A stretch of DNA of 64,000 nt from an uncultured Bdellovibrio sp. (GTDB taxonomy: Bacteria > Bdellovibrionota > Bdellovibrionia > Bdellovibrionales > Bdellovibrionaceae): NCBI GenBank assembly GCA_963932905.1, contig CAWVRN010000001.1:1-64000 (forward strand), written 5' to 3'. The notes beneath the pieces are model-generated. The model was not told where the DNA came from and ran no database searches. It worked only from the letters and a program-made list of their open reading frames with translations. Both the position numbers and the translations under genes were made by a program. This document shows positions 1-13,889 of the stretch, in pieces. How positions within the stretch are numbered: position 1 is the stretch's first letter; every line of letters starts with the position of its first letter.

Positions 1-305
1 GGGAAACCAAGTGAACGGAAATCTTTTATCTTAAGGGCTTGCTTTCTTACAGAAGAAATTCCGTGGTTCATAGGATCGATTAAAATTCGAAACTTTCCTG
101 CAATTGCGCATGTCTCGTCTCCGATCCTCCCAAGTTCGTAGTTGCTATTGATTGTATAGGAGGTCATTTTTACCATAACTGGTTTCGGATCATTGTCGCT
201 AAGTTTGGCGTAGGCTGTGCAATATACGACAGACTCGAACAAAGGCGTCGCCGCGTGAAGAAAATTAGATGATATTAAAATTATCCCTAGTGTGATTAAT
301 CTCAT
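1..305 (-). CDS. Secreted hypothetical protein (runs off the window edge)
   Basis: Hand translation MRLITLGIILISSNFLHAATPLFESVVYC..., open to base 1; AAAGGA RBS upstream; signal-peptide-like N-terminus; not in the ORF track. Confidence 0.6.
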   Translation of the reverse strand, partial: MRLITLGIILISSNFLHAATPLFESVVYCTAYAKLSDNDPKPVMVKMTSYTINSNYELGRIGDETCAIAGKFRILIDPMNHGISSVRKQALKIKDFRSLGF

Positions 306-557
306 TGGTTCGTTCCTTTTTTTTACAGTTTTAGTTGAGCTCTATTTTTTTGCTCCACAAATATATAAAATAGAAAAAGGATCTGGGGAATTGTCGAAAT
401 ACCTATCTTAAGTATCGAGAAATACTATGACTGTAACTGCTCAATTAGTTTCGACTTTTAAAGAATGGCTGATTTGAATTTTTTTCAACTGCATGATCTC
501 ACCAAGAGTTTCGTGCACACCAAGAAATGGCAAAAAAATATCGTAGAATTCCGGGCA

Positions 558-583
558 TAAAAAAACCAGCTCGCGGCTGGTTG
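558..583 (-). terminator. Intrinsic terminator, probably downstream of tRNA-Val before the insertion
   Basis: Minus strand aaccagc-cgcga-gctggtt followed by a T-run; a second hairpin ctcacc-aaa-ggtgag at 596-610. Confidence 0.55.
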
Positions 584-614
584 ATTTAATCTTGCCTCAC
601 CTTTGGTGAGAGAT

Positions 615-644
615 TGGTAGGCCCGAGGTTAGTGTAATCGAACC
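615..644. repeat. Left attachment site (core TGGTAGG plus element arm ending TCGAACC)
   Basis: tggtagg-cccgaggttagtgtaa-tcgaacc resembles the tRNA end tggtagg-gagtacaggat-tcgaacc with a 5-bp longer spacer. Confidence 0.8.
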
Positions 645-846
645 AACCGAGTTAAGCATAGGACGCGCTTATAAGGTTCAGTGGAAGAAAGTAAAACCGA
701 ATTTAGAGGAATTAGCACGACTATATTGGGTTGATGGACTGACGCAGCGGCAGATATCTGAGTTAATCGGTGTTCGTCGAGCAACTGTGGCGGAATCTGC
801 GAAGAAATTTAACCCTGATCAGTTTAAGGCTGACAAGTTAGGCTGA
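622..846 (+). CDS. Start-less helix-turn-helix coding segment; predicted C-terminus of the recombinase in the excised circle
   Basis: PEVSVIEPTELSIGRAYKVQWKKVKPNLEELARLYWVDGLTQRQISELIGVRRATVAESAKKFNPDQFKADKLG*; in-frame TGA at 607-609 and no ATG; in frame with the recombinase across the core. Confidence 0.75.
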   Translation, partial: PEVSVIEPTELSIGRAYKVQWKKVKPNLEELARLYWVDGLTQRQISELIGVRRATVAESAKKFNPDQFKADKLG

Positions 847-865
847 ACATTTGTGTTCAGCCTTT
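840..865 (+). terminator. Hairpin at the stop codon of the HTH segment
   Basis: Perfect 10-bp stem aggctgaaca/tgttcagcct, short T tail. Confidence 0.55.
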
Positions 866-946
866 AGCATTATAACTAGTGTTTTAATTACGGGGCAAGA
901 ACCAAAAGATTTAAGTGTGATCCGTAGGCCACCCTGTTTTCAGAAT

Positions 947-1210
947 TTATTTAACGAAACAACCTAACATGCCCGAGTTCCAAAGACTCACGACCGTACC
1001 TGGCCTACAATATGTAGTTATTGCCACAGTCCAGCGTCCACTGTATTCAGCTTTTTTTCCGTCATACATAAACACGACTGGATCTCCAAATCCACCTGTT
1101 CCCGAAATCTGTACATATCGCCCGCTTTTCATAATTTCTTCTGGACTTAAGTTTGCGGAGAAAGCTAAACCTGATAAAAACAAACTAAATATCAAAACTT
1201 TTAAACGCAT
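947..1210 (-). CDS. Small secreted hypothetical protein (element cargo)
   Basis: 87 aa, signal peptide ending AFS-A, AGGAG RBS, two Cys. Confidence 0.7.
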   Translation of the reverse strand: MRLKVLIFSLFLSGLAFSANLSPEEIMKSGRYVQISGTGGFGDPVVFMYDGKKAEYSGRWTVAITTYCRPGTVVSLWNSGMLGCFVK

Positions 1211-1474
1211 AAAATCTCCTATTAAATTTTAGCCGTATTGCTTTTTGGTTTACACCTGTTTAAAACAATGACACAGCCTTGGGTTAAAAACCTATCCACG
1301 CGACCTTAGGTAAGAGAAGCGTGTTATTGTTTTAAAATTTCAAATTGAAGGCCAAAGAATTATTTTTTCGAACAAACCCAAATGAAATAATAACTACCTT
1401 TGTCTATTCAGACTGAGTAATTTGGTCAAACACCGTGATATTCGATTTAAAATCTAAACCGTACAGCTTTAACC

Positions 1475-1939
1475 TTATTTCGATGTTCTTACATGCCTAT
1501 TCCCACCACTTAAAACCTGGACCTGCGGCACATTTTTAAATCTTTGGGTCTTATTGGTATAAATAAAATCATCGGTCACAACCCAAAGCCTAAGTCCAAG
1601 AAATTTCAATATCTGTAACAGATACTTAAAATTAGGATTCCCGTCCTGCCAAAGCATCCGGTACAGGGTCGTTCGTGGTATTCCAGTTTTTTGTGAAGCC
1701 TTTGACATGCCGATTTTAGATAAAATCAAATAAAGACCTCTACGAAAATCCTCAAGTTTTTCTGAACGATCAAATTCAAAACAGGTTTTTAAAAACTCGC
1801 TGTACAAATCTTTTTCTGCAAGGTCTGTTTGCATTTCTTCTTTAGTGTAACTGCGGGATGCGCGTTCCTTTTTAATCAAGACTGCATACATTTCTCGAGC
1901 TTTATAGATATTGTCGTATCTGATCTTGTTTTTAGGCAT
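1475..1939 (-). CDS. HTH protein, HI1420-like addiction-module antidote family
   Basis: GMSKASQKTGIPRTTLYRMLWQDGNPNFKYLLQILKFLGLRL fits the family pattern. Confidence 0.7.
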   Translation of the reverse strand: MPKNKIRYDNIYKAREMYAVLIKKERASRSYTKEEMQTDLAEKDLYSEFLKTCFEFDRSEKLEDFRRGLYLILSKIGMSKASQKTGIPRTTLYRMLWQDGNPNFKYLLQILKFLGLRLWVVTDDFIYTNKTQRFKNVPQVQVLSGGNRHVRTSK

Positions 1940-1956
1940 GTTACATTAATGTAACA
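1939..1956. promoter_or_regulatory. Perfect 18-bp palindrome, putative operator at the HTH gene start
   Basis: tgttacattaatgtaaca; overlaps a TGnTACATT extended -10-like element and the ATG. Confidence 0.6.
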
Positions 1957-2210
1957 CAATTGGACTAAAGGCAAAAAATATTTTTTGAATTTAATTTTTC
2001 ATTTTATTTTCAAAGAGTTAGATATCAAAATAATTTCTTTATTATGCAAACTCGTTTGGTGTCATATTGCCGTTTGCTGATAAATTAGTTTTTATCTCAC
2101 TAAAAAATCGTGTGGGTAACGCATTTACTATATAGTAAGAGAGAAAATTCTCTGACTTAGACTCAAATTTAAAAATTGGCCAAGCCAATAACAATAGCCT
2201 CAAAAAAACT

Positions 2211-2228
2211 TGTTCGGAAATCCGAACA
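2211..2228. promoter_or_regulatory. Palindrome upstream of the rep-like gene
   Basis: tgttcgga-aa-tccgaaca. Confidence 0.4.
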
Positions 2229-2425
2229 CATTAAAAATTTTAAAATAAATCTTATAGAGAGAATAAATTTTTATTTATTGAATTACACTTGGTTATTGTC
2301 ATAGATTAGCATTTCAAGGATCAACATAAGATCTATCAAGAGTCTCAAAGCGCCAAAGAGCGCACATCAATAGCCACAAACAAAATATATTTGCTCGTTT
2401 ATTATCGAGCTTTTTTCCTAAAGGG

Positions 2426-3373
2426 GTGGAATTTATGCGTCTTAATAGATCGCAAAGTGCAACATTTGTTAAAAGAAAATACAAACGTAAAACAACCAGA
2501 AAATTATCAGCTAGTGACATTCAAGTTTTAGATTTTCTATGGACCTGGAAAGTAGCAAGTACACAAATTCTAAAGATTGTAGCATTTAAAGGTAAAAGTG
2601 ATTGGTGGGTGTATAAAGCGATTCGCCAATTAATTTCAGAAAAATACATTATGCCACTTCCTCGTGGCAAATATCTAAACCAAGAAGTCTTAACTTTAAC
2701 AGAGCTTGGATTTGAAGTGGTGCTGATGGATCGTGACGACATTCAACAATACAGATTTAAACCTCATGCTCCAGCACATGATTACTTTGCAACTTGTCTT
2801 CAGCTGGGTGATCTTTGGCTATCAGACTGTCAGAAAGTGTTTTTCACTGAACAAATGTTGGCAAGTTTGAGATCGAATAATTTTCCCAGCAACTATGCAA
2901 GTGGCGAAGGACATTTACCTGATGGTATTACTCGTTTACAAAATGGTTTAAAGTCTGTGGCCGTTGGCTACGAAGTTGATCTCAATTTAAAAGAAGAAGA
3001 TCGCTATATTGAAACGATTCGGTATTACGAGAACATAGAAGATATTTCAATTGTCATTTGGCTAGTTCGCAATGACTGGATCGCTGAAAGAATATCTAAA
3101 GTTATAGCTGCTGATGGCAGTCGGTATAAACCAAAACAGTTTTCATTTATCAGGCTTGATGATTTTAAAAATCAAGTATGGGATGCAAAAGTTTTTCGTG
3201 GCGCAAATGTGGGCTTAAGTGTCCGCAAAATCCATACAAACCTTATGCAAAGCCTGGGCAAAACGGATGCAAACATAGTGCAAAATAATTTAAAAGATAT
3301 TTTCTTTTCAGATTATAAAAGTCCACAAAAATCAAGCTCTTACGGAAAAACTGAAAACACAAAAATTGATTAA
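2426..3373 (+). CDS. Replication-relaxation (Replic_Relax)-like protein: winged helix plus PD-(D/E)xK-type domain
   Basis: N-terminal wHTH (..LTLTELG..), PAHD, HLPDG...GYEVDLNLK motifs; ATG start at 2435 possible. Confidence 0.55.
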   Translation: MEFMRLNRSQSATFVKRKYKRKTTRKLSASDIQVLDFLWTWKVASTQILKIVAFKGKSDWWVYKAIRQLISEKYIMPLPRGKYLNQEVLTLTELGFEVVLMDRDDIQQYRFKPHAPAHDYFATCLQLGDLWLSDCQKVFFTEQMLASLRSNNFPSNYASGEGHLPDGITRLQNGLKSVAVGYEVDLNLKEEDRYIETIRYYENIEDISIVIWLVRNDWIAERISKVIAADGSRYKPKQFSFIRLDDFKNQVWDAKVFRGANVGLSVRKIHTNLMQSLGKTDANIVQNNLKDIFFSDYKSPQKSSSYGKTENTKID

Positions 3374-3480
3374 CACCCTATGGGTTAAGGGTAGATATAT
3401 ATTCTTATCCATAGGGTCACACAATCAAGAGCCTCAGACAGAAAAAATGAATAAATAAATCTAAATGAAAGGAAATAACT

Positions 3481-4050
3481 ATGAGTCATAACAATGACAA
3501 TAGTGGAATGCTTTATATTGGTGGAATAGCGGTGATTATAATTATCATTGGTTTTTTAATTAAAATTTTAAAATCAATCATGATTGAATTATCGCAATTA
3601 TTTACAGCTATCGGAAAAATGGCTGAGGCTTTTATTTCAATGGCGTGGCAAATAGCGCAAATTATGGGGTTATTAGCTTTAGGTGTTGCTGCAATTTACG
3701 CAGCTTGGATATTTTCAAAGAAATACTACAAGCTGGTTAAAGATGCGACTGAGGTCAAAGCACAAATTGAAAATAGATTTTCAAATCTGCAATCAGAGTT
3801 TGAGGATGCGTTTAATTTGTTAAAACGAAATGCAATTCGAGAAATCAGCCAAATGCGCAAAGAATTGGATGATGCTTTAAAACGATCCGAAGTTGTTCCA
3901 GAAATTCCCAGCATATCAACTGAATCACCAACTACTTCGGATTCCAATCAATTAGCTGCATCAATAGCTAACCAATCAAACGATGAGCAAACTCATCAAC
4001 TAACGACTCAACTACAAGATGCACCAAAAGATATTTCAAACCCTTTTTAA
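3481..4050 (+). CDS. Membrane protein with two hydrophobic segments and a coiled coil
   Basis: 189 aa, GAAAGGA RBS. Confidence 0.7.
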   Translation: MSHNNDNSGMLYIGGIAVIIIIIGFLIKILKSIMIELSQLFTAIGKMAEAFISMAWQIAQIMGLLALGVAAIYAAWIFSKKYYKLVKDATEVKAQIENRFSNLQSEFEDAFNLLKRNAIREISQMRKELDDALKRSEVVPEIPSISTESPTTSDSNQLAASIANQSNDEQTHQLTTQLQDAPKDISNPF

Positions 4051-4069
4051 ATAAAGGGTGCGGGGTTAA

Positions 4070-4294
4070 ATGGCTAAACGATCTGGGCGTAAAAGGTGGG
4101 AACCAAGTTCTATTCGAATTAAACAGGAAAAGGTCAGTGATGAACGCTTTGAGCAATTACTTGCTGAAGTGGGCGAAGTTTTATATAAAAGACTTCGTGA
4201 CAAGGTCAGAGTTCAAGATGAACAGACGACTAAGTCTTCTTCCACTGAACCTTTTTTAAGACTCGGCAATGGTGAAAAACCAAAAACCGCTTAG
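4070..4294 (+). CDS. Small protein directly upstream of the recombinase (candidate directionality factor)
   Basis: 74 aa, basic N-terminus, stops 13 bp before the recombinase ATG; function is inference. Confidence 0.5.
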   Translation: MAKRSGRKRWEPSSIRIKQEKVSDERFEQLLAEVGEVLYKRLRDKVRVQDEQTTKSSSTEPFLRLGNGEKPKTA

Positions 4295-4307
4295 GAAAGG
4301 ACATTTC

Positions 4308-6128
4308 ATGAAAAAAATAAATATAAAAAATCAATCTGGTTACAAGATCGGGATCTATGTTCGTGTTTCAACTGAAGAACAAGCTGAGAACCCCGAAGGT
4401 TCAATTAAATCACAAGAACATCGTTTAAGGGAATTTGTTAAACACAAAAACTCATTTGAGCCCTTTGGTGAAATCGTTGAATTTTACTGTGATGCAGGTA
4501 TCTCAGCAAAAGATACCAATAGACCAGCGTTTCAAAGAATGATGGATGATGCAAGATCCAAGAAAATCAATATGATTTTAATTACTGAATTATCACGGCT
4601 TACAAGATCTATTCGTGATTTTGCGAACCTTGTTGAAATGCTGGATCAGTTAGAATGTCAAATATACTCACTAAAAGATCAATTTGATTCCTCAACAGCG
4701 GTTGGATCTTTTTCAATGTTTTTAATGGCAAATTTAGCTCAATTTGAACGAAAGCAAATTGGTGAAAGGATTTCAGCGAACTTCTTATCAAGAGCTAAGC
4801 GTGGACTTTATAACGGTGGCAGTGTGCCGTTAGGATATAAAGTCAGCGGCAATCGCGATGGAAGGCTTGAGGTTATCCCAACTGAAGCTGAAACAGTTCG
4901 GGATATATTTAAAACTTTTTTAACTGAAGGCACTTTGTCGTCTGCAACAAAAGCCCTAAATAAAAAGAAAATCCACCTTGTTCGTAGAAAAGAAGGCGGC
5001 GGTCAGCCAAGAACTGGTGTTGTGATGCTGGAATCACTTTATAAAATGCTCACAAACCCAGTTTATATTGGTATTAGGACTTATCAAGAAAACGGCAAAG
5101 AGTATTCAGTCAAAGCTCAGTGGGAACCAATTATCAACGAGGAAATATTTAGACGTGTTGGTGAAATTTTAAAGAAAAACAAATCGAGGAAAAAATCTTC
5201 ACCAAAAAGATGGCCTTATTTATTGTCTGGGTCTTTGTACTGTCAATGTGGACATCGTATGTCTGGTAAGTCCGCTCATGGCAACGGTGGAAAGATCGCT
5301 TACTACGATCATGCGTGGACAGCCAAAATTGAAAACGCAACAGCTGAAAAATCAAAACGCTGTGATCCACAACGGGTATTAGCTGAAAAGCTTGAGCCCA
5401 TTGTGTGGAAAGCCGTTAAAGATTTTTTATTGGTTCCAGAGTTTTTCACGGAAATTTTGCTCGAAGCTCAAAATCAAAGCGAGTTACAAACGCCAAAGCA
5501 AGATATTGAGCGAAAGCAAAATAAGATCTATGAAATCAACATGCAGCTTGATGCCTTGTCAGAGCGCCTAGGTTTACTGCCAAAGTCAGTCAACCCAAAG
5601 CATGTCTTTGTTCAAATGGAGCGCTTGTCAGTGCAAAAAGATGGCTTAGAAAAAGATGTCGCGGAATTAAAACGAAATAACGAACGGGAAAATGTTGCGG
5701 TTGGTATGGCTGATTTTAATCAGTTTAAGGCTGTGGTTGTGGATTTATTGGAAAATGAAAATGATCCTGTGGTAAAGACTGCGATCATTCAAAAGATGGT
5801 TCACAAAATTATTGTGAAAAGTGATGAAGTTGAGATTTTCTTTTACGTTGGTGAAAAGTACTATAAACGAGAGCTTGCAATTGCAGGCTCTCGCATTTTA
5901 TCAATAGCGCTTGGTGGTGATGGAATTAACAAGGATGTAGTGCCAGAAAAAAGGCACACGTCGGCACTCCCTGTTTTTCACGGGAACCCGAAGACATCCG
6001 AAATTTTAAATTTAAAACCGAACTTTTTTTATGACGCTGGTTCGAACAGCTTGAAAAATGGTAGGGAGTACAGGATTCGAACCTGCGACATCCACCTTGT
6101 AAGGGTGGCGCTCTACCAACTGAGCTAA
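4308..6128 (+). CDS. Large serine recombinase (integrase), integrated-state form of 606 aa
   Basis: YVRVST catalytic motif, DAGISAKDTNRPAFQRMM, SRLTRS, recombinase domain, zinc ribbon CQCG..YYDH..C, coiled coil; AGGAAAGG RBS favours the 4308 start; 3' end runs antisense through the tRNA. Confidence 0.95.
   Translation: MKKINIKNQSGYKIGIYVRVSTEEQAENPEGSIKSQEHRLREFVKHKNSFEPFGEIVEFYCDAGISAKDTNRPAFQRMMDDARSKKINMILITELSRLTRSIRDFANLVEMLDQLECQIYSLKDQFDSSTAVGSFSMFLMANLAQFERKQIGERISANFLSRAKRGLYNGGSVPLGYKVSGNRDGRLEVIPTEAETVRDIFKTFLTEGTLSSATKALNKKKIHLVRRKEGGGQPRTGVVMLESLYKMLTNPVYIGIRTYQENGKEYSVKAQWEPIINEEIFRRVGEILKKNKSRKKSSPKRWPYLLSGSLYCQCGHRMSGKSAHGNGGKIAYYDHAWTAKIENATAEKSKRCDPQRVLAEKLEPIVWKAVKDFLLVPEFFTEILLEAQNQSELQTPKQDIERKQNKIYEINMQLDALSERLGLLPKSVNPKHVFVQMERLSVQKDGLEKDVAELKRNNERENVAVGMADFNQFKAVVVDLLENENDPVVKTAIIQKMVHKIIVKSDEVEIFFYVGEKYYKRELAIAGSRILSIALGGDGINKDVVPEKRHTSALPVFHGNPKTSEILNLKPNFFYDAGSNSLKNGREYRIRTCDIHLVRVALYQLS
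6039..6083. repeat. Right attachment site (element arm GGTTCGAA, core, tRNA arm)
   Basis: ggttcgaa (6039-6046) is inverted to ttcgaacc (6076-6083) around TGGTAGG. Confidence 0.8.
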
Positions 6129-6134
6129 CTCCCT
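6059..6134 (-). tRNA. tRNA-Val (anticodon TAC)
   Basis: 76-nt cloverleaf: acceptor stem AGGGAGT/ACTCCCT, anticodon arm CCACC-CTTACAA-GGTGG, GGTTCGAATCC T arm, encoded CCA. Confidence 0.98.
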
Positions 6135-6189
6135 GTCGGTAAGAGAGTCTTGTTTAGCAAAGACCCTCTGGCTTGTCTACAAAAAATAA

Positions 6190-6762
6190 TTACTGAAGTT
6201 TATTTCGGCAATTTGGACTTATTAAAGTTCCCGGATTCACACGAGCCATCGAGAAATGCGTGAATGTATAGCTGTTTATCGCTGCAATCGACATCATGAC
6301 CACGTTGCCTTCGTAAGAAGATGGTACTTTTTTCACAAACGAGCTCGCTGCAAAATTTCTAAGGTTCAATCGATAAACCTCGCGATTTTGTGCATTTCTT
6401 AGCGTCGCGTAGATCACTTTTGATGAACTCAAGCTGCCAACTCCCGCGCCCATTACCACACACGTTCTTGGATCCATTTGTTGGATGTATAGAATACGGC
6501 TGTTTCCATTTTGGTTTACAACTTTAAATGTGAAGTATGACGTTGGGATATCGCCTTGTCTTAACATCCATGAACCAGACAACAACATCCACGAAATTGG
6601 CTCTTCTTTGCCCCATGGAACTGGAATTAAGCTATCTCCGTCTAATAAATAATCATTTCTAGGGTAAGAAGGACCGACCGTAGGTGCCGACTGGGCAATA
6701 CAGCTAGTTACTATTAAAATAACTATTAAAAATTGCTTAAAATACTGTTGTAGCCACTTCAT
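6190..6762 (-). CDS. Exported hypothetical protein
   Basis: GAGGAG RBS before MKWLQQ; hydrophobic N-terminus. Confidence 0.7.
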   Translation of the reverse strand: MKWLQQYFKQFLIVILIVTSCIAQSAPTVGPSYPRNDYLLDGDSLIPVPWGKEEPISWMLLSGSWMLRQGDIPTSYFTFKVVNQNGNSRILYIQQMDPRTCVVMGAGVGSLSSSKVIYATLRNAQNREVYRLNLRNFAASSFVKKVPSSYEGNVVMMSIAAINSYTFTHFSMARVNPGTLISPNCRNKLQ

Positions 6763-6772
6763 AGCGTCTCCT

Positions 6773-7906
6773 CTAGATTTCAAAATGCACTTTCACAGCT
6801 TTATTAAAGTAATAACCGTTTTTAGCTCTGAAAAGGTATTTTGGTTTGTCGTACTCGGGTTCAATCAACTTCCGCAGTCGTTTAATCGTCACATAAATTT
6901 TGTTGTCATGAACACTTGGATCATAAGGCTGCTTCCAAACGTTTTCTACTAGGTACTCTTTCGAAAAAATCACGCCTTGATTTTGGATAAACAGTTTTAA
7001 CAGATCAAGCAAGATGAATTGGTTTTTGAAATCAATGCGACCAATTTTTTGTTCCACTACTAAATGGTTAGCTTCATCAAAAAGTACGTCGAAGTTTGTT
7101 TGAACTTCGCCGCCAATTTTTTCTAAATTTGTTTTAAGGATTCGAGCCAAACGCACTTGATTACGTTCATCAACCATTCTGAGCGCCATATTTAGATACA
7201 AACGGGCTGAATCTTTATCGCCCATATCCAGATAAGTTACGCCTAGCATGCCCGTGATTGAAATATGGGTAACGATTTTCTTGCACTCTTTTAATTCTTC
7301 GTAAGCTTCCCACATGATGTTCAAAGCTTCGTCGTATTTCTTTTGGATTCTGAAAATATCAGCATTCAAAAGTTTGGCAGATAGTCGGATTTCTGGAAAA
7401 TTATAAACTTGGAAAAACACATGCAAATTATAGACTTCTTTCAAAGCCTCAGCATAACGACCCATCATGAAGTACACTAGACTGATCATGAAGATCGCGT
7501 TGCAAATGTCCTCTTTATCATCTTCTGTGAGCGCCAAAGATAAAGATCTTTGAGCATAATCAAGAGCCACTTCGTGTTGACCCTTATAGCTCGCGCATAA
7601 AGACAGGGTAAAATAAGTTTTAGAATTAAGAGAAAAACCTTCTTTTAAAACTAAATCTTGTAGCTGTTCTTTTGTAGCATTGATTTCATCGAAACGTTCA
7701 CGTTCCGCATAGATTCTAAGGAAATTGTTCTGGCATTTTAGATAACCAGAGAAGTTCTTTTGCGCAAAATAGATTTGAGCCGCTTGGTTCAAGAATCCCA
7801 TAGCACTATCATAATCACCACGATCACAGTGAAGTTTGCCTAGCTCAAAAATCTGATCAACAGACGATGTATAAGTCGTCTGGATTTCCGCCGTTTGGTT
7901 TATCAT
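6773..7906 (-). CDS. TPR-repeat protein with C-terminal OmpR-type winged-helix DNA-binding domain
   Basis: TPR-like helices; LLKLFIQNQGVIFSKEYLVENVW...IYVTIKRLRKLIE...GYYF. Confidence 0.85.
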   Translation of the reverse strand: MINQTAEIQTTYTSSVDQIFELGKLHCDRGDYDSAMGFLNQAAQIYFAQKNFSGYLKCQNNFLRIYAERERFDEINATKEQLQDLVLKEGFSLNSKTYFTLSLCASYKGQHEVALDYAQRSLSLALTEDDKEDICNAIFMISLVYFMMGRYAEALKEVYNLHVFFQVYNFPEIRLSAKLLNADIFRIQKKYDEALNIMWEAYEELKECKKIVTHISITGMLGVTYLDMGDKDSARLYLNMALRMVDERNQVRLARILKTNLEKIGGEVQTNFDVLFDEANHLVVEQKIGRIDFKNQFILLDLLKLFIQNQGVIFSKEYLVENVWKQPYDPSVHDNKIYVTIKRLRKLIEPEYDKPKYLFRAKNGYYFNKAVKVHFEI

Positions 7907-12876: not shown

Positions 12877-13889
12877 AATCCTAATTTCTCCGCTAGGCTT
12901 CTGACAGCTCGGTTTGCTTGACTAGAGCCTTTCTGCATCATATCGCGTTTATTTTCAAAGTCTAGAACGCTATAGGAGTCTAGGTTTATGGTGATTGTAT
13001 GATCGACGTGAGCACTTTCTTTAACCATTTGACTCGAAATTTCTGCCCATACTAAATTCTCGACTGAATCGGATTCGTTAATTGGGGTTTTAAATGCACT
13101 GCCGCCCAAAACGTTTATTAAAACGATATAATTTGCGCCTTGTTTACGTAGATGATCAGCTAGTGCTTTCAGCTCACGGACCGCACTAATATTTTTTTGA
13201 TAGGGTTTAAACAATGGTGGGTAAGGAATACAGTACGGCAGAAGCGCTTCAATATTACCGCGATTCATTACATACATTTTATTTTTTTCTAGATTCAATG
13301 CGGGACACGCGAATGGTTTTTTAAAATCTTCAGCTTTTAAATTATGAAGTGCCGATTTCACGATACTTTGAATGACATCAAAATCACCGGCACGTTTGCT
13401 TGAAATCAAACCCTTTTTGATAATATCTTCGCTTTTGATTTTGAACATCTGCCATTCCATATCGTTGGCCGAACCACGCCATGCATACAAACTTGCCGCT
13501 AATGCACCCATTTCAATACCGGCTACGTTGTATATCGGAATTTTATTTTTCTGGAATTCTTGTAGGACACCGATTTGGCCAAACACTTTTCCGCCACCTG
13601 GGCCAAAGATAACACCCACTTTAGGTAGCCGAGGTACTGGTTTTGGCGGTCTGTTATCAGATTCGACTTCATCAGGAGCCATGTTGTCGTCAACAACAGG
13701 TCTATTGTCTTCAGCTTCAGCTGGTGGTTGAGTCGTAGTAGTTGGTGGTGTTGATGTTGAATCTTTTGGTCTGGTTGCGTTTGGGCGGTCCGTTTCAGGG
13801 CGAGATGGCGTCGGAGCAGAGTCTCTTTTGTGCAGTGGGGTCTGGCAACCAATCGCTCCAACTAAAAATATCAAGATAAGTAACTTCAT
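12873..13889 (-). CDS. Patatin-like lipoprotein, probably catalytically inactive
   Basis: Lipobox AIGC, Pro/Thr linker, FGPGGGK oxyanion loop, GIEMG in place of GxSxG. Confidence 0.7.
   Translation of the reverse strand: MKLLILIFLVGAIGCQTPLHKRDSAPTPSRPETDRPNATRPKDSTSTPPTTTTQPPAEAEDNRPVVDDNMAPDEVESDNRPPKPVPRLPKVGVIFGPGGGKVFGQIGVLQEFQKNKIPIYNVAGIEMGALAASLYAWRGSANDMEWQMFKIKSEDIIKKGLISSKRAGDFDVIQSIVKSALHNLKAEDFKKPFACPALNLEKNKMYVMNRGNIEALLPYCIPYPPLFKPYQKNISAVRELKALADHLRKQGANYIVLINVLGGSAFKTPINESDSVENLVWAEISSQMVKESAHVDHTITINLDSYSVLDFENKRDMMQKGSSQANRAVRSLAEKLGL

Follow-up and report, generated by a model that had tools for sequence, protein, structure and literature searches.

Serine integrases are usually thought to avoid tRNA genes, and the locus described here raises the question of how an enzyme of this class has come to lie against one, and of what it recognises in the DNA of the tRNA gene and of its own element. 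In the window, i.e. the whole stretch of 64,000 nucleotides that was analysed, direct reading places two direct repeats of TGGTAGG at 615-621 and 6059-6065, flanking an island of 5,444 bp (615-6058). The host gene of the island is a tRNA-Val(UAC) gene (anticodon tac) at 6059-6134 of the minus strand, and the second repeat is the complement of its last 7 nt, CCA included. Taking the whole explanation together with the reading of the sites that it entails, we consider it probable that window 615-6058 is a small integrative element whose own large serine integrase inserted it into the 3' end of tRNA-Val(UAC). The locus comprises the following features.

564-582, minus strand: terminator-like hairpin and T run; at the empty site of locus L002 this hairpin immediately follows tRNA-Val.
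595-614, plus strand: attL B arm, host DNA 3' of the tRNA gene, without a recognisable box (the B arms of 17 elements have no conserved motif).
615-621, plus strand: attL core TGGTAGG with the inferred crossover dinucleotide A619-G620 (direct reading, attP symmetry, identity block).
622-644, plus strand: attP P' arm, with a TCGAACC box at 638-644 (read directly).
622-846, plus strand: 3' part of the integrase gene, cut off by integration: a tail of 74 codons with weak helix-turn-helix (HTH) matches, in frame with the integrase across attP.
947-1210, minus strand: 87-aa cargo ORF without family matches.
1475-1939, minus strand: HTH protein of the HI1420-downstream 'addiction module antidote' or repressor type (PF21716, E 1.4e-8).
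2426-3373, plus strand: 315-aa protein, weakly MobC replication-relaxation-like (NF041423, E 2e-5, far below the cut-off; no Pfam or PHROG match).
3481-4050, plus strand: 189-aa ORF with weak, low-scoring matches only.
4070-4294, plus strand: 74-aa ORF that immediately precedes the integrase gene and is a candidate cofactor (ORF list and family searches).
4308-6128, plus strand: large serine integrase in its integrated-state form, 606 aa, its last 22 codons antisense to tRNA-Val.
6039-6058, plus strand: attP P arm (in attR), with a GGTTCGA box at 6039-6045, also encoding ...GSNSLKN of the integrase.
6059-6065, plus strand: attR core TGGTAGG, complementary to the end of the tRNA.
6059-6134, minus strand: tRNA-Val(UAC), whose acceptor and T arm form the attB B' arm, with the real T-loop box TCGAACC at 6077-6083 (tRNA call and direct reading).

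The ends of the island are confirmed by an uninterrupted site in a genome of the same genus (L002), where the left flank with its terminator-like hairpin directly joins TGGTAGG and an identical, intact tRNA-Val. The hairpin at 564-582 probably served tRNA-Val as its terminator before the insertion, which moved the two 5.4 kb apart. At the same tRNA-Val site of another same-genus genome (G009, locus L004, ~1560-1800) lies a different element that has only TGGTAG in common with the island and opens with another in-frame, HTH-coding stretch. Family searches of the island ORFs found no phage structural genes, and no second Resolvase-domain ORF was present among those scanned. The island is possibly mobilisable, and from its weak MobC-like resemblance the 315-aa protein may have a mobilisation function. 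Comparison of window 1-7000 with the contigs of four metagenome runs revealed no joints of an excised circle or an empty site, contigs being unable to show rare forms. A loose end in one run (X1), combining the P' arm of the window with a different left flank, was first taken as an element at tRNA-Met in another strain; its flank lies within the tRNA-Met island array of the source genome (G000) and may be the end of a decayed element, so that we treat it as a hint only.

The initial annotation's assignment of the enzyme to the large serine integrases is borne out by its domains, each of which scores above the Pfam cut-off, and by its predicted fold. Resolvase (PF00239) matches residues 16-166 of the 606-aa protein with an E-value of 7.9e-34, and the RVSTEEQ motif aligns with RVSTTNQ of the TP901-1 integrase; Recombinase (PF07508) and Zn_ribbon_recom (PF13408) follow with 57.8 bits (cut-off 21.1) and 30.9 bits (cut-off 25.3), respectively. 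Among 20 integrase homologs, C312, C314 and H335 are invariant and C352 nearly so. The AF2 model comprises a catalytic domain, a recombinase domain and two long antiparallel helices (396-423 and 431-461) that would form the coiled-coil hairpin at the place occupied by the serine-integrase coiled coil, the zinc-ribbon part being modelled with low confidence. In a Foldseek search about 570 columns of this model aligned to the full-length SPbeta, Bxb1 and PhiC31 integrase structures (E ~1e-17). Likeness to studied integrases at the level of sequence is remote (E 6e-17 to the catalytic domain of TP901-1, E 3e-4 to the C-terminal domains of A118), and the match of the window integrase (P0001) to the CcrB-like model NF047343, at E 2.6e-44, falls far below the cut-off of that model.

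The integrase ORF meets no stop before attR and runs on into the antisense strand of the tRNA gene. In a circular form of the element its frame would instead continue into 622-846, where the 74 codons of the HTH tail have their first start codon at codon 58. Such an in-frame continuation was found in 16 of 16 elements tested, open for 68-184 codons beyond the core, and nine of the 16 tails contain no in-frame ATG; in some lineages the tail is longer and includes, besides an HTH, a second domain resembling Recombinase. It follows that attP lies within the integrase gene itself, a circumstance missed in the earlier reading, and that integration, owing to that position, detaches the HTH tail while leaving all canonical domains intact. 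In SSV1-type archaeal integrases, which are tyrosine recombinases, attP likewise lies inside the integrase gene, and integration splits the catalytic part; the window integrase, by contrast, keeps its catalytic and DNA-binding domains together and loses only the HTH tail. An inverted repeat (ggctgaaca / tgttcagcc) at 844-865, directly after the stop of the detached tail ORF, received no call in a terminator scan; in the circle it could serve as terminator of the full-length integrase transcript. Long database proteins, P0005 (758 aa) among them, were considered as native full-length integrases and rejected. At the P0005 locus (L019) a short tail belonging to this integrase lies 5 kb upstream, and the protein is probably a chimera: an integrase 87% identical to that of the window, fused over a tandem-array junction to the long tail of an adjacent element (L019 4667-4858 and 11753-12470). 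For this reason the claim of an in-frame continuation was made to rest on rebuilt attPs.

Joining 6039-6058 to 615-644 yields a 50-bp attP with its midpoint at A619|G620, about which GGTTCGA at 6039-6045 is the mirror of TCGAACC at 638-644. The latter starts 23 bases after T615, the first base of TGGTAGG, and the TCGAACC of the tRNA gene (6077-6083) starts 18 bases after T6059. Direct reading thereby upheld, in every position and distance, the original description of an attP bounded by inverted GGTTCGA/TCGAACC and centred on AG, and equally the claim that the box of the tRNA arm is exactly 5 bp nearer the core; the host-side arm at 600-606, described as devoid of the motif, reads cctttgg. Expressed as half-site positions, the attP boxes occupy 19-24 and the tRNA box 14-19 in attB. 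According to the structural account of the LI integrase (Rutherford 2013; PMC3783163), the C-terminal domains cover a 25-bp attP half-site, the zinc-ribbon motif in attB lies 5 bp nearer the central dinucleotide, and the attB model moves the zinc-ribbon domain (ZD) from bp 16-24 to bp 11-19. Because both box positions fit these ranges, we infer that the box is read by the zinc ribbon. It is unlikely that reading falls instead to the recombinase domain or to the detachable HTH tail, or that the P arm, following CCA, serves 3' processing or termination of the tRNA. The tail does add a DNA-binding module that only the circular form possesses, and the P arm becomes the 3' trailer of the tRNA after integration and starts T-rich on the tRNA strand; the positions of the boxes nevertheless lie within the zinc-ribbon ranges of LI, and the same box stands on the P' arm, which is never next to a tRNA, so that a role in tRNA processing cannot explain the mirrored copy.

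The layout of the sites was compared across related loci, 80 of which were taken from other genomes, nearly all of them Bdellovibrionota metagenome bins, along with paralogs in the same genome. Each of the eight strong paralogs in the source genome faces a tRNA gene tail-to-tail (Val, His, Arg-tct, Arg-tcg, Gln, Met twice, and Asp), and in each the ORF stays open across the tRNA 3' end; contigs C45, C5, C12, C22, C1 (at 523616-525485), C43 and C11 of G000 carry such paralogs. Islands are thus found at at least 8 of about 36 tRNA and tmRNA genes, or approximately a quarter of the tRNA genes of this genome. In addition, a P-arm-like GTTCG at the usual distance adjoins three genes, at C9:126566 (tRNA-Leu gag), C44:2434 (tRNA-Arg cct) and C15:56182 (tmRNA), which suggests further, perhaps decayed, islands beyond the strong integrase matches. 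Elsewhere, the integrase ORF crosses a convergent tRNA 3' end (Met, Val, Ala, Phe, Arg, Leu, Lys, Asn, Glu or Pro) in 43 of the 80 loci; in three a tRNA is present and the ORF is broken or cut by the contig, three more abut a tmRNA gene in like manner, and the remaining 31 comprise contig-end truncations, tRNA fragments, attP-like junctions or unassigned cases. The 51 integrases that furnished junctions are related to one another, forming 41 clusters at 70% identity, 31 at 60% and 13 at 50%.

Positions in these junctions are numbered from x1, the T complementary to A76 of the tRNA, with x0 and lower on the element side. Counts refer to 49 of the 51 junctions, L083 and L095 having been dropped on account of an offset tRNA end in the ARAGORN call and the lack of TGG at x1-3. 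On the element side, P-arm positions x-18 to x-13 read G in 43, T in 47, T in 49, C in 45, G in 45 and A in 39 of the 49 (80-100% per base), and on the tRNA side the box at x19-24 reads T, C/T, G, A, A, C in all 49. Complete attPs were rebuilt for 20 elements: 13 loci whose other end was found through the tail-coding sequence, four elements of the genome itself, and three contiguous attP-like junctions. Candidate attLs for the His, Arg-tct, Arg-tcg and Met (C43) paralogs were unconvincing and were left out of this set. Mirror symmetry in the 20 attPs averages 12.35 matches out of 25 about x5|6, against 4.6-7.4 at 19 other centres, and P' arm positions x25-29 carry CGAAC in 13, 17, 20, 18 and 16 of the 20, respectively. 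When the outer 10 attP positions were slid along the tRNA arm in 17 attP/attB pairs, a single peak appeared at a shift of 5 (5.82 and 6.12 matches of 10), no other of the 15 shifts exceeding 3.71. The host-side attB arm of the same 17 pairs showed no motif at any offset, 5 bp included, and attB as a whole is not symmetric. Studied integrases have pseudo-symmetric attB sites, unlike the one-sided attB of the window family. Of 401 genomes sampled from the phylum, 52 contain a strict form of the P-arm pattern and one contains its reversed control.

The recurrence of the GTTCGA/TCGAAC arms, the dyad centre and the 5-bp offset across dozens of lineages argues for the original proposal that the enzyme reads the universal T-loop sequence. 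The T-loop box is not universal in the integrase family: in the same genome the paralogs at Arg-tct, Gln, Met (C43) and Asp have no clean GTTCGA at x-18 to x-13, and L076 is likewise without the box. The Gln element has strongly mirrored arms of another sequence (TTGCGA/TCGCAA), 2 bp nearer the centre and without a T-loop match at the 5-bp shift. A phage origin was considered and not adopted; the strict P-arm pattern matched a single viral contig (L099), and because the downstream arm of that contig has no box, the elements are not evidently phages.

The recurrence of the sites also bears on whether TCGAACC at 638-644 is a decayed relic of a copy of the tRNA 3' end, unread by the integrase. 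The P' arm does resemble a tRNA T arm with extra bases, and tRNA-targeting elements often carry tRNA-derived sequence, as described for islands in PMC4383910 (Islander). Such an origin is made very improbable by the inverted copy at the mirrored place on the other arm, present in 39-49 of 49 junctions per base, by an offset of exactly 5 in 17 pairs from many isotypes, and by a core-to-box sequence that is unrelated to tRNA; a relic, moreover, would decay and not stay fixed at synonymous sites.

That the sites are so fixed is evident from the coding role of the P arm, which is translated in one fixed phase in 41 of 41 loci. The serine codon within the box is TCG in 40 of these 41, a codon accounting for 16% of the serine codons elsewhere in the same genes. 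The codon preceding it ends in T in all 41, while specifying Gly (25), Cys (6), Arg (4), Ser (4), Asp (1) or Ile (1), and the leucine codon of the P arm is TTG in 33 of 36. Because synonymous positions are fixed in this way, selection has acted on the DNA and not on the peptide. The invariable phase would also be expected if P-arm conservation reflected a conserved C-terminal integrase peptide, GSNSLxNG, and no DNA site; this is highly improbable in view of the TCG and TTG codons, of a first residue that takes six amino acids around an invariant third-position T, and of the AF2 model, in which residues 528-606 are predicted to be disordered. Chance resemblance at the window locus alone deserves next to no credence, since GGTTCGA, although not over-represented in the 64-kb window (6 occurrences on both strands, against 6.5 expected from shuffles), occupies att positions in three of those six, and the same pattern is found throughout the family. 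The probability of such a 7-mer at a fixed position and strand is ~5e-5, and two of them are needed; the layout of the sites is real, far beyond chance.

Identity between attP and attB covers x1-x6 in every case and in 9 of 17 pairs goes no further than x6, the block measuring 6-11 bp overall and 7 bp at the window locus. Because the dyad centre lies at x5x6 and the identity block x1-x6 ends at x6, we place the cut at x5x6, which here would be AG, or tRNA nt 72-71, two bases in from the discriminator. From such a cut it follows that the element must supply the last 5 nt of the tRNA, and that identity is needed on that side only. A crossover at AG, as originally suggested, is supported by the identity block, which appears as a cut at x5x6 and a rebuilding of the tRNA end would predict. 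The accompanying statement that the enzyme cuts beside CCA with only 7 bp of identity is retained for the 7 bp and must be amended for the position, the probable cut being 4-5 nt in, at tRNA nt 71-72. The dinucleotide x5x6 is non-palindromic in 45 of 49 junctions and GC or CG in four; in studied integrases a palindromic central dinucleotide would not fix polarity.

A survey of the tRNA isotypes beside homologous recombinases gave substance to the suggestion that several tRNAs may be targeted, near-identical integrases being found in different isotypes. Integrases L032 and L063, which are 92.3% identical, lie in tRNA-Ala and tRNA-Phe, L033 and L047 (93.7%) in tRNA-Phe and tRNA-Ala, and L043 and L055 (82%) in tRNA-Met and tRNA-Val; in each of these three pairs the two tRNAs have the same terminal six bases and differ beyond them. 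The window integrase behaves similarly: P0003, 92% identical to it, ends in residues read off a tRNA-Met-like sequence and not tRNA-Val, relatives that are 71-75% identical sit in tRNA-Met, and a decayed copy of the window element's tail is present in the array at the tRNA-Met gene of the same genome. All three tRNA genes of that genome ending in the same six bases hold such islands. In L021, the gene for a 77%-identical integrase reads into 12 bases identical to the end of tRNA-Val and then into unrelated DNA (5164-5200), and an intact tRNA-Val follows 8 kb further on (13296-13371), as if another kind of element had inserted between them.

These observations may be accommodated in a single scheme. 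The zinc-ribbon domain would read the T-loop box, and attP would imitate on both arms what the tRNA gene offers on one, the host-side attB half-site being bound without sequence specificity. Cleavage would occur at AG (tRNA nt 71-72), and the tRNA gene would stay intact by virtue of the last 5 nt supplied by the element. The choice of tRNA would be set mainly by the six terminal bases common with attP, which would allow close relatives to move between isotypes. The circle would encode the integrase with a disordered linker and the HTH tail, and the integrated form would be tail-less, ending in tRNA-derived residues. A role of the tail in direction or regulation is possible. As a tentative extension, which we regard as rather doubtful but worth stating, integration would itself act as a switch: the HTH-tailed form, its disordered linker encoded by an arm of attP, would be made only from the circle, the two forms would differ in direction or regulation, and attB would require only one specific half-site and the six terminal bases. 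Were this true, the element would possess a protein-level memory of its state, and its target could be re-aimed to nearly any tRNA gene through a few central bases of attP. Placement of attP inside the gene would be a simple, and testable, way for an element to sense its integration.

Several parts of this scheme have counterparts in known systems. As far as the Listeria A118/LI system is set out in PMC3783163, the window family resembles it in the succession of catalytic domain, recombinase domain and zinc ribbon with inserted coiled coil, in an attP of ~50 bp that is pseudo-palindromic with 25-bp half-sites, and in an outer motif lying 5 bp nearer the centre in attB, a rule followed in the window family by the tRNA-side half-site only, the host-side half-site being without the motif. 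Within the same limits, it differs from A118/LI, the target of which is a protein gene, in that it targets a tRNA or tmRNA gene and has the T-loop box as its outer motif, in possessing one conserved attB half-site, and in an attP that lies inside the integrase ORF.

Islands at the tmRNA (ssrA) gene of Dehalococcoides were reported to carry a CcrB-like serine recombinase, DsiB, the 3' end of whose gene invariably overlaps the att site, and for which the authors suggested full function only on the circle (McMurdie 2011; PMC3146451). As there presented, DsiB is a clear published precedent for a split gene and for serine recombinases at tRNA-like genes. By description, the window family is like the DsiB islands in having a serine recombinase at the 3' end of a tRNA-like gene, an integrase gene that overlaps att, and tandem arrays; like the DsiB gene, moreover, the window integrase has no stop inside its island, which is also true of 43 of the 80 related loci. 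The DsiB islands, in the same account, have a 20-bp repeat, a crossover placed in the T-loop, a small serine recombinase (DsiA) and a fixed 6-gene module. The window family instead shows 6-11 bp of identity (7 here), a cut that would fall at nt 71-72, and many isotypes, and among the ORFs scanned in the window island there is neither a DsiA-like companion nor a conserved 6-gene integration module of the kind reported.

Tyrosine-integrase islands, as characterised in the Islander work (PMC4383910), likewise target the 3' part of a tRNA gene that is rebuilt from element sequence; their enzymes are unrelated and their identity blocks longer, and the window family differs from them in having serine-integrase geometry. 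Engineered fusions of a serine integrase to a recombination directionality factor (RDF) indicate that a C-terminal partner can alter the action of the enzyme and drive excision (Olorunniji 2017; PMC5737554). Unlike those man-made fusions, as reported there, the fusion of the window integrase to its tail would be natural and dependent on integration. No ORF of the island was recognised as an RDF, a function for which the 74-aa ORF at 4070-4294 is a candidate.

In our search of the literature outside subscription journals, we met no account of the T-loop box as a motif of serine integrases, and none of this Bdellovibrionota family. The family constitutes a large clade of serine integrases that targets tRNA genes by copying the T-loop box, and a natural confirmation, across many lineages, of the 5-bp zinc-ribbon offset rule that separates attP from attB. 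The presence of near-identical enzymes in different isotypes suggests that the target comprises a universal motif and a short, changeable core, a property of interest for integrase engineering.

Two minor observations concern the ends of the contig that contains the window. At its far end (G000 C1:570969-571390), what remains of the C-terminus of another integrase continues across a P-like arm and TGGTAGG into a truncated copy of the window element's tail, 38 codons long and 80% identical over 35 residues; the site is a junction inside a tandem array that the contig end interrupts. At the start of the contig, window 1-55 recurs at the start of contig C13 and, with 93-95% identity, in two other genomes, and is a repeat at which assemblies break.
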